From assembly GCA_965248355.1 (NCBI GenBank), contig OZ252098.1, forward strand, positions 2,048,001 to 2,112,000: 64,000 nucleotides of DNA, read 5' to 3'. This DNA comes from Candidatus Latescibacterota bacterium. GTDB lineage: Bacteria > Latescibacterota > UBA2968 > UBA8231. The translations under genes and the position numbers were made by a program. This document shows positions 15,278-24,699 of this stretch, piece after piece. Every line of letters starts with the position of its first letter. Within the stretch, counting starts at the first letter, position 1. A model generated the notes under the pieces. The model was not told where the DNA came from. It worked only from the letters and a program-made list of their open reading frames with translations, and searched no databases.

Positions 15278-15559
15278 ATGCTCAGAGACAAGCCGGTCAG
15301 TCACCTCGCTCTCATCCTTCTGATCAGCGCCATCAGCGGGAGCGTCCTCGGCGAGTCCCTGCGCCTCATCCTGCGGTTCGTCGCCGGCGAGAGCAGCATC
15401 GTGGAGCGGGCCCTGCTGGATTTCTTCCGCTACGAGATCGGACCCCACCGCCTCGATCTGATCATCCTCTCCTTCCAGTTCGAGCTGGGCCTGAGCTTCA
15501 ACGTCATCACCTTGCTCGGCATCTTCGCGGGCTGGTACTACTTCAAGTATTCCTACTGA
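15278..15559 (+). CDS. DUF4321-like small membrane protein
   Basis: 93 aa, two hydrophobic segments, GSVLGE and LDL.ILSF...L...FN. Confidence 0.65.
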   Translation: MLRDKPVSHLALILLISAISGSVLGESLRLILRFVAGESSIVERALLDFFRYEIGPHRLDLIILSFQFELGLSFNVITLLGIFAGWYYFKYSY

Positions 15560-15578
15560 AATCCCTGGAGAACCGATC

Positions 15579-15875
15579 ATGTTTCCGAGTCACTGGGAAT
15601 TGCTGATCATCTTCCTCGTGGTCCTGCTCTTGTTCGGGGCCAAGCGCATCCCGGAGATGGCCCGGGGCCTGGGCAAGGGAATCCGCGAGTTCCGCGGCGC
15701 CGTGAAGGACGTGCAGGACGAGGTCGAGACCGCGGGCCGGGGCGAAACCCCGAACCGCATTGCGTCCCCCCCCTCCGGCCAGGTGGCCCGGGAGACCGGC
15801 GCCGCGCCGGACCAGGCCGCCCCTCCCTCCGACGAGCAGGGCGCCTCTCCGGCGCGGGAAGAGGCCCGCAGCTGA
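15579..15875 (+). CDS. tatA: Twin-arginine translocase subunit TatA/E
   Basis: [31 protein letters not shown]. Confidence 0.95.
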
Positions 15876-19029: not shown

Positions 19030-19479
19030 TCAGCTCTCGTAGGCCTCCCGGAAGGCCTTCAGGGTCTCCCGGAGGGCGGCGGGGTGGGCCAGGTCCGTCG
19101 TCTGCTTGCTCTTCATGGCGTGGACCAGCAGCTTGTGCAGCCGCGCGAGCTGGTCGCGGTAGGCCTCGACCGCCGCCGAGTCGCTCTCGTCCGGCAGCTT
19201 GATGCGCTGGGCGAGGAAGTACTGGGTCACCGTCTCCCGGATGCGGTCGGCGTGGCTCTCCTTGTTCATCACCCAGCGGGCGATCTGGTTGGCGTTGGCG
19301 CCGGGGTCGGCGGACAGCTCGGTGATCTGCCGCATCGACTTCTCCACGGTGCGGATGTCCTCGTCGAGGGACGCGAACCGCAGGTCGTCTCCGTAGATGC
19401 CGCAGGGGATCTCGCAATGGCCGAAGGCGCCGGCGGCGCTGACGCAGAGGGTTGCACACAGGATCGCTAGCCTGGACAT
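19030..19479 (-). CDS. sodN: Nickel superoxide dismutase with Sec-type signal peptide
   Basis: Nickel hook HCEIPCGIY directly after AFG; RWVMNKE.HA. Confidence 0.9.
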   Translation of the reverse strand: MSRLAILCATLCVSAAGAFGHCEIPCGIYGDDLRFASLDEDIRTVEKSMRQITELSADPGANANQIARWVMNKESHADRIRETVTQYFLAQRIKLPDESDSAAVEAYRDQLARLHKLLVHAMKSKQTTDLAHPAALRETLKAFREAYES

Positions 19480-19558
19480 GATTCGTTCTCCTCTCTTGTC
19501 ATGGGGTCCCGCAATCTTACCCGCCCTCCTGCTGCTCTGCAACCACGGTTGCGGACCC

Positions 19559-20419
19559 ATGGCGCAATGGCGGGGGGGCAGCGATGAACTCTACGTGAGC
19601 CGCGTGCTCCTGGCCCCGGGCGTGTTCACGTCCGGCATCGAGGGTCCGGTCTGCGACCGCGCCGGCAACCTCTACGCCGTCAACTTCGGCCGCCGGGGCA
19701 CCATCGGCCTGGTGACCCCCGCCGGCGAGGCGAGCCTGTTCCTGGAGCTTCCGCCGGGCAGCACGGGCAACGGCCTGCGTTTCGACCCCCGGGGGCGGCT
19801 GCTCATCGCCGACTACACCGGCCACCAGGTGCTCCGCGTCGACATGGGGACGCGCGCCGTCGAGGTCCTGGCCCACGAGCCGGGCTTCCACCAGCCCAAC
19901 GACCTGGCCGTCACCGCCGGGGGCGTGATCTTCGCCAGCGATCCGGACTGGCGCGAGTCCACGGGCCGGGTGTGGCGCGTCGACCCCGGCGGCGCCGTGA
20001 CCCTGCTGGCGCGGATGGGCACGACGAACGGCATCGAGGTCGGCCCCGGCGAGCGCACCCTGTACGTGAACGAGTCCGTGCAGCGCAGCGTGTGGGCCTT
20101 CGACCTGGAGGCGGACGGGACCCTGGGCGGCAAGCGCCTGCTCATCCGCTTTGCCGACCACGGCCTGGACGGCATGCGCTGCGACGTGGCCGGCAACCTC
20201 TACGTCACCCGCTACGGCAAGGGCACGGTCGCCAGGATCTCGCCGGAGGGGGAGCTGCTACGGGAGGTGGAGCTCACCGGGGCCAGGCCGAGCAACCTCG
20301 CCTTCGGAGGCCCCGACGGCCGGACCTGCTACGTCACCCTGCAGGACCAGGGCAACGTCGAGGTCTTCCGCGTCGAGGAGCCGGGCCGCGCCTGGCGGCT
20401 GGCTCGGCGGCGGCCATGA
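19559..20419 (+). CDS. SMP-30/gluconolactonase/LRE family protein
   Basis: IEGP.CD..GNLY, PNDL, NGI, DGMRCD..GNLY, SNLAFGG; start uncertain. Confidence 0.88.
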   Translation: MAQWRGGSDELYVSRVLLAPGVFTSGIEGPVCDRAGNLYAVNFGRRGTIGLVTPAGEASLFLELPPGSTGNGLRFDPRGRLLIADYTGHQVLRVDMGTRAVEVLAHEPGFHQPNDLAVTAGGVIFASDPDWRESTGRVWRVDPGGAVTLLARMGTTNGIEVGPGERTLYVNESVQRSVWAFDLEADGTLGGKRLLIRFADHGLDGMRCDVAGNLYVTRYGKGTVARISPEGELLREVELTGARPSNLAFGGPDGRTCYVTLQDQGNVEVFRVEEPGRAWRLARRRP

Positions 20420-21256: not shown

Positions 21257-21973
21257 TTACATGAGGCCGCGCTCCTTCAGGCTGAGGAAATCGCTCTCGC
21301 TGAAGATGATGTGATCGAGGATGTCGATGCCCATGATGCCTCCGGCCTCGACCAGTCGCCGGGTGAGCTCGATGTCCTCCTTGCTCGGCGTCACATCCCC
21401 GGATGGATGGTTGTGGGCGAGGATGATGCTGGCCGCCGCCCTCGTCACCGCCACCTGGAAGACCTCGCGCGGGTGGACGATGGACGCCGACAGGGACCCG
21501 ATGGAGATCACCTCCTTGTGGACCACCTGGTTGCGGGCGTTGAGATAGAGGCACAGGAAGTGCTCTCGCCGCTGGCCCTTCAGCTCCGTCAGCAGGGGCA
21601 GGGTATCGGTCGGGCAGGAGACGATGGGCTGCACGCCCAGACCCTTGTGCAGGCCCCTCCGGGCCAGCTCGAAGGCGGCCACCAGGACCCCCGCCTTGAC
21701 CCGGCCGATCCCCTTCAGCCGGCGCAGCTCCAAGGCCTCCATGGCGACGATCTCCTCGACGCCGTGCCGGTCGCAGATGGCGCTGGCCACCTCCAGCACG
21801 CCGCGCCCCCGGTACCCGGTGCCGAGGACCACGGCCATCAGCTCGTGGTCCCTGAGGCCCTCCGGACCGCAGCGGTCCAGGCGCTCGCGCGGCAGGTCCT
21901 CGGGATGCGCGTCCTGGCCGTTGGCGCCGTCGACGGGCGCGCCGCACGGGTCCTGCGCATACAGCTCTGACAT
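21257..21973 (-). CDS. radC: RadC/JAB-domain protein
   Basis: PRERL...G...L.D.EL, VHPREVF, HNHPSGD..PS.ED, LDHII; AGGAGG upstream. Confidence 0.93.
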   Translation of the reverse strand: MSELYAQDPCGAPVDGANGQDAHPEDLPRERLDRCGPEGLRDHELMAVVLGTGYRGRGVLEVASAICDRHGVEEIVAMEALELRRLKGIGRVKAGVLVAAFELARRGLHKGLGVQPIVSCPTDTLPLLTELKGQRREHFLCLYLNARNQVVHKEVISIGSLSASIVHPREVFQVAVTRAAASIILAHNHPSGDVTPSKEDIELTRRLVEAGGIMGIDILDHIIFSESDFLSLKERGLM

Positions 21974-22164
21974 TGGTCCCCTCCTGTAGCGGCGGTACGT
22001 GCACGGAACCACCCGGTCCTGTGTCCTGAGGAACACGCCCCGGGGCCGGCGGACCTCTCCCGCGCCGACCCCGGCCGTCATGGCAAGCACAGGCCGTGCC
22101 ACCTTCTCCGTCGATCCGGCCCCTCACCGGTCCCGCTCCCCGGGGCGGGCCTATATTCCACCCG

Positions 22165-24699
22165 ATGACCTTCCCGCCCTCTCTCTCCCGCCGGCTCGGG
22201 GGAACCTGGCCCCCGGCCCTCCTGACCGGCGGCCTGCTGGCCCTCGCCTTCCCCTGCCATCCGCAGAACCCGGCCGCCTTGGCCTACGGCCCGGGCTGGG
22301 CCTGGATCGCCCTGGCGCCGCTGCTCCACGCCCTCGCCGGCCGGCCGCGCGCGGCCGAGGCCTTCCGGCCGGGATGGCTGGCGGGCTTCGTCTTCTACCT
22401 GGCGAGTCTCTACTGGGTGGCCCACACCCGGGGCGGCGGCCCGGCGGTGGTGGCCGGCACCGGCCTGATGGCCGTCTACCTGGCCCTGTTCACCGGTCTC
22501 TTCGCCGTGGCCCAGCGGAGCCTGTGCCGCCGTTTCGGATCTCCCGGACTGCTCGCCGCCCCGGTCCTGTGGACGACCATGGAGTACCTGCAGTCGGTGG
22601 GCGAGCTCGGCTTCCCCTGGCTCCTCCTGGGCCACAGCCAGGCCCGGCTCCCCGCCCTCGTCCAGTACGCCGAGCACACCGGCGTCTTCGGCGTCTCCTT
22701 CGCCGTGGTCCTCGCCAACGCCCTTCTGGCCCTGGCCCTGGCCTCCGGGGGCCGGGACCGCACCCGGGCCCTGGCGGCCGCCGCCGCGGTCCCCGCGCTC
22801 ACGGCGCTGCACGGGCTCCTCGTCCTCGGCGCCGCCGACGGACCGGGCCTGCGGGTCGCCGTCGTGCAGAACAACCTCGGCCTGGAGAAGTGGCGGCCGG
22901 GGGGGCTCCAGGCCAGCTTCGCCTCCCTGGACTCCCTCAGCCGCCGGGCGGAGCGGCCGGGGCTGATCGTCTGGCCGGAGACCGCCCTTCCCTGCAACCT
23001 CGACCGGCGCCCCGACTGCCGGCGGCGGATGCAGGATCTGGCCGATACCCTCCAGACGCCGATCCTCACCGGCGCCCCCGGCACCGACGCCGGCACGGGC
23101 GAGCCCCTCAACGCCGCCTTCCTGTTCTCCCCCGGCCGGGAGGAGGTGCCGGCCTACGCCAAGATGCACCTCGTGCCCTTCGGGGAGCGCACGCCCCTGC
23201 GCGACAGCCTTCCCCAGCTGCGCCGCATCGACTGGACGGCCCTGACGGGGGACCTGGCGCCGGCCGAGTTCGCCCGCGGCCGGCGGCGCACCCTGTTCAC
23301 CGCCGGCCCGGACTCGGCCCGCTTCGCCGTCCTCATCTGCTTCGAGTCGGTCTTCCCCGACTTCGTGCGCCGCTCGGTGCGGGAGGGCGCCGACTTCCTC
23401 GTCAACATCACCAACGACTCGTGGTTCGGGCCCACGGCGGGCCCCTATCAGCACGCCGATCTGGCCGTGCTGCGGGCCGTGGAGAACCGCGTCGCCATCG
23501 CCCGCTGCGCCACCAGCGGCGTCTCCCTGTTCATCGACCGCTACGGGCGCACCCGCGAGCGCACCGAGCTCGGCAGCGTCGACGTCCGCACCGGGGAGGT
23601 GGGCCTGGGCGGCCCCCCGACCTTGTACACCCGCTTCGGCGACTGGTTCGCCGCGGCCAACCTGATGGTCGCCGTCCTGCTCGTGGCCGGGGCCTGGTGG
23701 ACGGGGCGGAGGCGCCTGGTGGGCCGCCCGGCGGCCGGTGCGGAGGCCGGGGATGAGCCGGACATGGCCGGGGCAGCCGCCGGCGGCGACGGTCCGGACG
23801 GAGGAGAAGAGCCGGACGGGCCCCCCGCGCGGGGGGAGATGCCCTTCCTCGACCATCTCGAGGAGCTGCGCTGGCGCATCCTCAAGGCCCTGGGCGCCAT
23901 CGTCGCCGGCACCTGCCTGTGCTTCCTCTTCGTGGAGCCCCTCCTCGGCCTGCTGGTGCAGCCGTACGAGGAGGCCGTCCTCAGCCTGAAGGAGCAGGGC
24001 TCGCCGGGGGTCGTGGAGACGGTCCGCGGCTGGCTGACGGATCTGCGCGGCGTCGAGGTGGAGGAGCCGCACGTCGAGGACGCCACCGAGCCGGCCGTGC
24101 CCTACGGCAGCCAGCTGCAGTCCCTGCGGGTGATGACCTGGTTCTTCGTCTACCTGCAGGTCTCCCTCCTCGGCGGGTTCATCCTCGCCCTGCCCGTCGT
24201 GTTCTACCAGTTCTGGCGGTTCGTCGCCCCCGGTCTGCTGAGCACGGAGAGACGCCTCTTCGTGCCGCTCATGGCCATGAGCATCGGCTGCTTCGCCGCC
24301 GGCGCCGCCGTGGCCCACAGCGTCGTGCTGCCCATCGGGCTGCGGTTCTTCCTCAGCCTCGAGCCGAAGGACATGACCTCGCAGTGGGCGGTGGACGAGT
24401 ACATCGGCTTCGTGCTGCGGCTCCTCTTCGGCTTCGGCCTGGTCTTCGAGATGCCCGTGGTGAGCCTGTTCCTGGCCCGCCTCGGGCTGATCACGGCCGC
24501 CACCCTGCGGCGCGTGCGGCGCTACGCCGTGGTCGCCGTGTTCCTGGTGGCCGCCGTGTTCACGCCGCCGGACCCGCTCTCGCAGGTGATGATGGCCCTG
24601 CCCCTGATGGTCCTCTACGAGATCAGCATCTGGGTGGCGCACCTGGCCGGCCGCCGGACGGAGGAGCCCGAGGGCGGGGAGGAGCCCGGCGCCGCTTGA
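22165..24699 (+). CDS. lnt-tatC: Fusion: apolipoprotein N-acyltransferase (Lnt) + twin-arginine translocase TatC
   Basis: Single ORF; Lnt GFPW..LG, WPET, K.HLVPFGE, ICFES, TNDSWFG, RAVEN; TatC from 23839 MPFLDHLEELR, QFWRFVAPGL...E, FEMP, TPPD..SQ...A.P...LYE. Confidence 0.92.
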   Translation: MTFPPSLSRRLGGTWPPALLTGGLLALAFPCHPQNPAALAYGPGWAWIALAPLLHALAGRPRAAEAFRPGWLAGFVFYLASLYWVAHTRGGGPAVVAGTGLMAVYLALFTGLFAVAQRSLCRRFGSPGLLAAPVLWTTMEYLQSVGELGFPWLLLGHSQARLPALVQYAEHTGVFGVSFAVVLANALLALALASGGRDRTRALAAAAAVPALTALHGLLVLGAADGPGLRVAVVQNNLGLEKWRPGGLQASFASLDSLSRRAERPGLIVWPETALPCNLDRRPDCRRRMQDLADTLQTPILTGAPGTDAGTGEPLNAAFLFSPGREEVPAYAKMHLVPFGERTPLRDSLPQLRRIDWTALTGDLAPAEFARGRRRTLFTAGPDSARFAVLICFESVFPDFVRRSVREGADFLVNITNDSWFGPTAGPYQHADLAVLRAVENRVAIARCATSGVSLFIDRYGRTRERTELGSVDVRTGEVGLGGPPTLYTRFGDWFAAANLMVAVLLVAGAWWTGRRRLVGRPAAGAEAGDEPDMAGAAAGGDGPDGGEEPDGPPARGEMPFLDHLEELRWRILKALGAIVAGTCLCFLFVEPLLGLLVQPYEEAVLSLKEQGSPGVVETVRGWLTDLRGVEVEEPHVEDATEPAVPYGSQLQSLRVMTWFFVYLQVSLLGGFILALPVVFYQFWRFVAPGLLSTERRLFVPLMAMSIGCFAAGAAVAHSVVLPIGLRFFLSLEPKDMTSQWAVDEYIGFVLRLLFGFGLVFEMPVVSLFLARLGLITAATLRRVRRYAVVAVFLVAAVFTPPDPLSQVMMALPLMVLYEISIWVAHLAGRRTEEPEGGEEPGAA

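Follow-up and report, generated by a model that had tools for sequence, protein, structure and literature searches.

A 64,000-nucleotide stretch of the genome of a Candidatus Latescibacterota bacterium (contig OZ252098.1, positions 2,048,001 to 2,112,000 of the forward strand), called the window here, carries a gene in which apolipoprotein N-acyltransferase (Lnt) and the twin-arginine translocation (Tat) receptor TatC are joined in one reading frame. Lnt and TatC are textbook envelope proteins and are normally separate. The gene, lnt-tatC, is the in-frame union of a complete, apparently active Lnt and a complete TatC, as judged from its sequence. It probably represents a bifunctional fusion that arose by loss of the stop codon between two neighbouring genes, with halves that would act like their free counterparts and would need no special coupling to each other. 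The ORF, its conservation and recurrence, the intact motifs, and the sole-copy status in whole families are shown by the data, whereas an undivided product, activity of the two halves, and the dispensability of coupling are inferred. All positions given below are those of the window.

The open reading frame (ORF) listing of the window contains a single stop-free ORF of 867 amino acids from a GTG at 22096 to 24699 on the plus strand. From the ATG at 22165 it comprises 844 codons and a stop, and relatives also begin at MTFPPSLSR. Residue numbers refer to this 844-residue form unless the 867-residue form is named. No stop lies within 22165-24699, in agreement with the uninterrupted 844-codon frame of a preliminary description of this DNA, which had been made from the letters alone. 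In the 867-residue form, Pfam places LNT_N at residues 45-210 (114.7 bits), CN_hydrolase at 253-486 (71.6 bits), and TatC at 586-836 (233.9 bits against a cut-off of 25.1, with profile positions 1-208 of 208 covered). The NCBIfam model lnt (TIGR00546) scores 319 bits against a cut-off of 132.9 over model positions 2-395 of 395, and the model tatC (TIGR00945) scores 211.2 bits against 132.7. The catalytic triad of Escherichia coli Lnt is formed by E267, K335, and C387 in the numbering of that protein. The motifs WPET, K.HLVPFGE (KmHLVPFGE in the window), and ICFES align with its catalytic Glu, Lys, and Cys (PDB 8q2p). Matches to solved structures reach E = 7e-36 for Lnt over residues 38-494 (8q2p, 5n6h) and E = 2e-42 for TatC (4b4a). 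The corresponding residues E272, K333, and C392 do not vary in two alignments, of 22 and of 29 fused proteins, and neither does the N-terminal motif of TatC. TatC here is the C-terminal 286 residues of an 844-residue protein, and not a free-standing protein of about 250 residues. It opens with MPFLDHLEELRWR, and the join reads ...WWTGRRRLVGRPAAGAEAGDEPDMAGAAAGGDGPDGGEEPDGPPARGE-MPFLDHLEELRWR.... Both halves had been described earlier as complete, and the profile matches, the triad aligned to 8q2p, and the opening of the TatC half bear this out.

The two halves are separated by the linker of about 45 Gly-rich and acidic residues that had been noted before; its exact length and composition are those listed in Table 1. 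Across 29 fused proteins the linker has 23-86 residues (median 35); it comes in 17 different lengths and carries a net charge of -5.6 on average. The linkers of families f3 and f4 have a short SILPP...PEPS pattern in common, and in these families the spacing from Lnt to TatC ranges from 258 to 294 bases, varying by multiples of three. In the linker and in the N-terminal extensions of unfused TatC, the GC content by codon position is dominated by acidic codons. The topologies of Lnt and TatC are established, and since the C-terminus of Lnt and the N-terminus of TatC would both be cytoplasmic here, the join would need no topological change. By homology to solved structures, the nitrilase-like domain (about residues 222-494) is predicted to be periplasmic and the last Lnt helix (495-513) to return to the cytoplasm. 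Homology and hydropathy indicate a cytoplasmic start of TatC, with membrane entry at 572-590. The hydropathy plot is crude and resolves only part of the helices, and the topology of Lnt was assigned by homology to solved Lnt. This homology-based topology puts the linker in the cytoplasm, as had been expected, where this acidic stretch is probably disordered. The fused product would be one membrane protein of about 14 helices. Its order would be Lnt (eight helices and the periplasmic nitrilase-like domain in solved homologues), a 45-residue tether, and TatC (six helices).

The junction is found in independent data. At least half of the sampled words of 22900-24500 are present in 18 public runs from about eight studies. 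Logan contigs were compared from three DNA-type runs, which belong to three studies other than that of the best holder, and from one RNA run. A 1622-base contig (X5 record 5) runs across 23049-24670 without gaps, and X8 records 13-15 tile 23248-24512, also without gaps. X9 record 22 covers 23726-24689 and has a net 3-base deletion at 23742-23745 that keeps the frame and represents a strain variant; it is the only junction indel among the contigs of the three other studies. The RNA run, a metatranscriptome, gave one 164-base contig (23375-23538), which lies inside the Lnt half, stops short of the junction, and could be DNA carry-over. Another assembly encodes an 844-residue protein that is 99% identical, and six fused proteins are 80-83% identical. 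In the protein collection, all three Pfam domains occur in 62 of the best 120 relatives and CN_hydrolase plus TatC in 3 more. These relatives have 600-975 residues and 41-99% identity, and several of them come from contigs of 4-6.5 Mb. An error in sequencing or assembly could have erased the stop that parts two separate genes, or shifted their frame, and the very G+C-rich linker with its homopolymer runs, as well as the different frames of the two genes in some genomes of the same genus, would suit such an error. This explanation is vanishingly improbable, because the contigs of the three other studies are in agreement at the junction, and the fusion is also present in independent assemblies at 99% and 80-86% identity and in dozens of genomes in four clades. 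The fusion is not an assembly artefact, and the earlier call of a genuine fusion stands.

The fusion is widespread in the phylum. TatC was found in 162 of the 168 species genomes surveyed, and the figures on TatC frames are drawn from the 150 matches listed. About 83 of these 150 lie in open frames of at least 700 amino acids, and the architecture recurs in related genomes when domain combinations are compared, a check that the preliminary description had proposed. Among the matches listed, fused-length TatC frames number five in the window's own genus g1, 24 in g13, two in g18, 21 of 22 in f3, and 31 of 31 in f4; none of at least 700 amino acids occurs in f2 or in the other classes (f5-f14). 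The f3 exception, G060, has TatC in a 506-residue frame on a small contig. At E <= 1e-40, exactly one Lnt match, within the TatC frame, is present in 22 of 22 f3 genomes and in 31 of 31 f4 genomes, and most f1 genomes have two Lnt matches. The fused gene of f3 and f4 therefore holds the sole TatC and the sole Lnt, and its product must supply both functions there. The window's genome, a single 5.50-Mb contig, has one TatC match, the fused one, and two Lnt genes, namely the fused one and a free copy. The free copy has 516 residues (L003:1333-2883, G000:C1:979385-980581, outside the window) and intact WPET, KVHLVPFGE, and CYES motifs. Most f1 genomes have such a free second Lnt, and the f3 and f4 genomes have none. 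The best 120 long TatC proteins consist of 109 Lnt-TatC, 2 NadA-TatC, 8 TatC-LptD_2, and 1 TatC alone. The carriers and related loci are mostly Candidatus Latescibacterota, with some older ones labelled Gemmatimonadetes or Gemmatimonadota, and all are metagenome-assembled genomes (MAGs). The public names of the fused proteins cover the Lnt half only ("apolipoprotein N-acyltransferase").

Unfused relatives point to the origin of the join. Twenty loci with a short TatC frame were examined, 15 from f1 and 5 from f2 or other classes. In 13 of the 15 unfused f1 loci, tatC is immediately preceded by lnt in the same orientation; of the other two, L014 has lnt 1.9 kb away and L013 has none. No lnt was found near tatC in the five loci from f2 or other classes. 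Two other f2 genomes have the adjacent pair (L127, L128), which brings the count to two of three f2 genomes. All 13 adjacent loci have an ATG in the tatC frame close to the lnt stop (-5 to +7 bases, counted from its first base), with an ATGA overlap in six of them. In four of the 13 (L018-L021), the tatC ATG is in frame with lnt behind a TAG or TGA. In each of the 13, an acidic stretch of 16-73 residues lies between this ATG and the conserved M(P/A/S/G)FL(D/E/A)HLEELRW. Because the unfused tatC start overlaps or abuts the lnt stop and the unfused TatC has an acidic extension, the linker appears to be the acidic N-terminal extension that TatC already had, and the fusion to result from loss of the stop. 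The two genes would already have been adjacent and translationally coupled in this bacterial class before fusion. A point change, or an indel of 1-2 bases, may then have removed the stop, joined the two frames, and turned the extension into the linker. After fusion, TatC synthesis would depend on read-through from lnt, and selection would keep the frame open. With the loss of tatC's own start, a frameshift in the linker would abolish TatC, which would hold the fusion in place. All 31 listed f4 loci and 21 of the 22 f3 loci retain one frame despite varied linker lengths.

A quick IQ-TREE of 74 Lnt sequences, with Shimodaira-Hasegawa-like approximate likelihood ratio (SH-aLRT) support, places these events in the phylum. 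The tatC-linked Lnt, fused or split, groups with the single Lnt of the phylum's other classes, and it would thus be ancestral. In f1 and f2 the free second Lnt falls into a clade of its own (99% SH-aLRT) beside a MAG labelled Gemmatimonadota, a placement that suggests an old acquisition or duplication. The fused state occurs in four clades: f3 with f4, g18, part of g1, and part of g13. It requires four changes on the Lnt tree, of which at least three are forced by well-supported branches, and by this tree the fusion arose at least three times.

One ORF may also yield two proteins, and the join would then be only genetic. Free TatC would come from proteolysis of the linker or from an internal start, either at Met559 (23839) or, for this strain, at Met534 (23764); this reading is rather doubtful. 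Met559 occurs without exception in the fused proteins (22 of 22 and 29 of 29) and in all 13 unfused relatives that have the N-terminal extension. The linker is of low complexity and probably accessible to proteases, and the window retains an ATG where the old start may have been. However, the ATG at 23764 is missing from the nearest fused relatives, and the linkers of the closest ones (L121, L123, P0005) contain no Met. No common Shine-Dalgarno-like motif precedes Met559 among the fused relatives, and the sites of f3 and f4 are varied, although Shine-Dalgarno use may not be general in the phylum. The bases before Met559 in g13 are CCCCGAGAAACCAAC-ATG. The conserved "PRExN" at this place in g13 was considered as a Shine-Dalgarno site and rejected, as its DNA reads CCC CGA GAA, CGA GCA, or CGG GAA, and not GGAG. 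No sigma-70-like promoter was found inside the fusion gene. A tatC start of its own would tolerate frameshifts in the linker, yet one frame is kept in the f3 and f4 loci counted above. Of the two internal ATGs that had earlier been suggested to give free TatC, the one at 23764 is not conserved, and the one at 23839 is invariant but lacks a consistent Shine-Dalgarno-like sequence.

Functional coupling of the halves is unlikely as the reason for the fusion. It would mean that Lnt is tethered at the Tat receptor to meet exported lipoproteins, or that it is a structural partner of the TatC complex, and that the fusion was selected for this. In its favour, lnt with tatC is the sole linkage conserved around these genes in four families, fusion happened three to four times over, lipoproteins exported by Tat form a known class, and some candidate Tat signals end in a lipobox-like Cys. 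Examples are C1:203852 (SRRWLL...LLAC), the sulfatase C1:4807190 (SRRDVLKG...LGGC), and the Fe-S protein C1:1121359 (GRRAFLKL...LGGC). The scan for Tat lipoproteins used regular expressions on ORFs filtered by G+C content at third codon positions; it is crude, with uncertain sensitivity and specificity. Among 3436 coding-like ORFs, it gave 219 lipobox candidates, of which 32 have any RR before the hydrophobic region and no more than a handful are convincing. Under stricter criteria, 15 canonical RR signals remained, and a lipobox is present in 2 of these. PhoX (with a TAT_signal match), a sulfatase, an Fe-S protein, and an asparaginase-family protein are among the Tat candidates, and by these scans the Tat substrate set is ordinary and small. 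A fused Lnt that is often the only Lnt must serve about 200 mostly Sec-type lipobox candidates, and in f3 and f4, where it is the sole Lnt, it must serve all lipoproteins and not a Tat subset. Lgt and LspA act before Lnt in lipoprotein maturation, so that a direct hand-over from TatC to Lnt is not the chemical order. Close relatives of the same genus manage without the fusion, and a stop loss between translationally coupled genes explains the join without a coupling device. The proposal that the fusion hands Tat lipoproteins to N-acylation is thus unsupported, given the few candidates, the sole Lnt of f3 and f4, and the prior action of Lgt and LspA.

The Tat components give the same picture. 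Exactly one TatA-family match is present in 113 of 125 genomes that are at least 90% complete, across all lineages; 10 have more than one and 2 have none. A single TatA is therefore phylum-wide and not tied to the fusion, which also speaks against coupling. The earlier remark that no tatB is visible is right, and tatA is even the sole TatA/B-family gene of the genome, but this is a trait of the phylum and not special to the fusion. Lnt as a stand-in for the missing TatB was considered and rejected, because lineages with fused, unfused, and non-adjacent genes alike typically have one TatA-family gene. It is distinctly unlikely that Lnt is a resident part of the Tat receptor complex in this class of Latescibacterota. 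In that case the fusion and the coupled pair would reflect an Lnt-TatC assembly that ties the export of folded proteins to the last step of lipoprotein maturation, and the acidic tether near the signal-binding N-terminus of TatC would help to capture twin-arginine signals. If true, Lnt would be the first example of an enzyme for lipoprotein modification that forms part of a protein translocase. In the favoured reading of a fusion by stop loss with independent halves, the Lnt half would N-acylate apolipoproteins from all export routes, and the TatC half with the single TatA would form a minimal TatAC translocase.

Several points weigh against this favoured reading. The class-wide linkage of the pair and its fusion on three to four independent occasions may indicate a functional link rather than tolerance alone. 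Met559 is invariant despite its internal position, and the conserved SILPP...PEPS motif of f3 and f4 hints at a role of the linker beyond that of a passive tether. All carriers are uncultured MAGs, and the product could be cut or made as two pieces. The tree, moreover, is of the quick IQ-TREE type only.

The neighbours of the gene change more than the pair itself. The linkage of lnt and tatC is kept across four families, while the other neighbours differ, with radC and a BFN nuclease in f1 and an aminotransferase in f3 and f4; no envelope gene is found among the neighbours. In the window, an Asp_DH-like gene follows tatC. The gene tatA, which had been placed about 6 kb away, lies about 6.3 kb upstream of the fusion gene (Table 1). 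A small DUF4321 gene directly precedes it within 15278-15875, and the distance between tatA and tatC in f1 genomes is 6-15 kb, a loose synteny that nevertheless recurs. A Ni-superoxide-dismutase-like ORF (19030-19560, minus strand) and an SMP-30/gluconolactonase-like ORF (19397-20419, plus strand) overlap on opposite strands by about 160 bases when the first possible starts are taken. One of these two starts is probably called too early.

Table 1. Positions of the lnt-tatC fusion gene, its parts, and selected neighbours in the window.
Feature	Position	Strand	Basis or remark
lnt-tatC fusion gene	22165..24699	+	844 codons and stop; alternative GTG start 22096 gives 867 amino acids; Pfam and NCBIfam; ATG start common to relatives
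LNT_N membrane domain of Lnt, residues 22-187	22228..22725	+	PF20154, 114.7 bits
CN_hydrolase (nitrilase-like) periplasmic domain of Lnt	22852..23553	+	PF00795
Catalytic residues E272, K333, C392, within the CN_hydrolase domain	22978-22980; 23161-23163; 23338-23340	+	aligned to E. coli Lnt 8q2p
Last Lnt transmembrane helix, residues 495-513, then RRR on the cytoplasmic side	23647..23703	+	hydropathy; alignment to solved Lnt structures reaches residue 495
Linker, 45 residues (10 D/E, 12 G, 6 P)	23704..23838	+	homologue of the acidic N-terminal extension seen in relatives with a separate TatC
Internal ATG (Met534), possible relic of an old tatC start	23764..23766	+	not conserved in the nearest fused relatives
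TatC domain, residues 559-844, opens with the invariant MPFLDHLEELRWR	23839..24696	+	Pfam, NCBIfam, matches to 9e02 and 4b4a, alignments of fused proteins
radC-like gene, divergently transcribed	21257..22102	-	neighbour conserved upstream of lnt in family f1
tatA, 98 amino acids, sole TatA/B-family gene of the genome	15579..15875	+	genome profile search

Other long frames with Lnt or TatC were seen in the survey. A free Lnt paralogue of f1 (L134:3-2006, minus strand, G103) has a C-terminal extension with a weak Abhydrolase_6 match of 24.1 bits, below the cut-off of 26.3, and its ORF runs off the fetched stretch. Lnt also lies in frames of 749-1153 amino acids in G104, G105, G153, and G156. In another class, TatC of G015 (L028:3276-4655, plus strand, family f10) lies in a 459-residue ORF with a low-complexity N-terminal extension of about 180-230 residues that ends in ...EEEPDPTE before MPFLDHLEEFRW. 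The acidic N-terminal extension of TatC is thus wider than the class with lnt linkage. Further TatC frames of 553 and 653 amino acids occur in other classes (G025:C7:6161-6790 and G002:C452:3882-4511).

The fusion is of moderate interest for the fields of Tat transport and lipoprotein maturation. As the sole source of both proteins in whole families, it indicates that each subunit of the oligomeric TatC receptor can bear an enzyme of eight helices and that Lnt tolerates a large C-terminal partner. Fused and split versions within one genus provide a natural experiment on whether lnt-tatC linkage means a physical or functional association. If the halves act independently, the gene would be a neat example in which overlapping genes fused by loss of a stop codon and a ratchet then kept them joined. 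The Lnt-only names leave an annotation gap, through which automated surveys may score genomes as lacking TatC or miscount their Tat systems.

Full-text literature searches found no description of a natural Lnt-TatC fusion, in line with the earlier view that it was not a recognised device. New is the domain architecture, and both proteins are well known. The closest counterpart is the split lnt-tatC pair of relatives of the same class (L009-L012, L018-L026, L127, L128). It has the same genes, order, and acidic TatC extension, and in f1 also the radC neighbour upstream. Identity between the Lnt halves is 48-65%. It differs in the stop (in frame in L018-L021) or frame offset between the genes, where the tatC start overlaps or abuts the lnt stop.

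In Mycobacterium tuberculosis, Lnt is naturally fused at its C-terminus to polyprenol-monophosphomannose synthase (Ppm1, Rv2051c/BCG_2070c), while the two genes are separate and adjacent in Mycobacterium smegmatis (MSMEG_3860/3859), and both activities of Ppm1 are reported to be retained (PMC3850990). Ppm1 is therefore similar in its natural C-terminal fusion to Lnt and in the separate, adjacent genes of a relative. In contrast, its partner is a cytoplasmic glycosyltransferase that acts on the same substrates (lipoprotein glycosylation) and not an export subunit, and it belongs to another phylum. Engineered TatB-TatC fusions in E. coli keep Tat transport (PMC5102672, which cites Bolhuis et al. 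2001). They likewise place a membrane protein on the cytoplasmic N-terminus of TatC, but they are artificial, the partner is a one-helix Tat subunit, and the linker has nine residues.

Other natural partners of TatC occur as well. P0164 and P0165 (677-692 amino acids) combine PF02445 (quinolinate synthetase NadA) with TatC and are another natural fusion on the TatC N-terminus. P0173-P0180 combine TatC with PF19838 (LptD_2); six have about 1160-1200 amino acids and two are shorter (636 and 531). These TatC-LptD_2 fusions of Gemmatimonadota (PF00902 and PF19838) resemble Lnt-TatC in that TatC is in frame with a neighbouring envelope-biogenesis gene. They differ in that the partner is at the C-terminus of TatC and joined via a signal peptide, so that cleavage is expected, and they belong to another phylum; the window has no join of this type. 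Finally, E. coli Lnt (8q2p, 5n6h) and Aquifex aeolicus TatC (4b4a) match the respective halves, with the triad aligned, whereas both are free-standing proteins.

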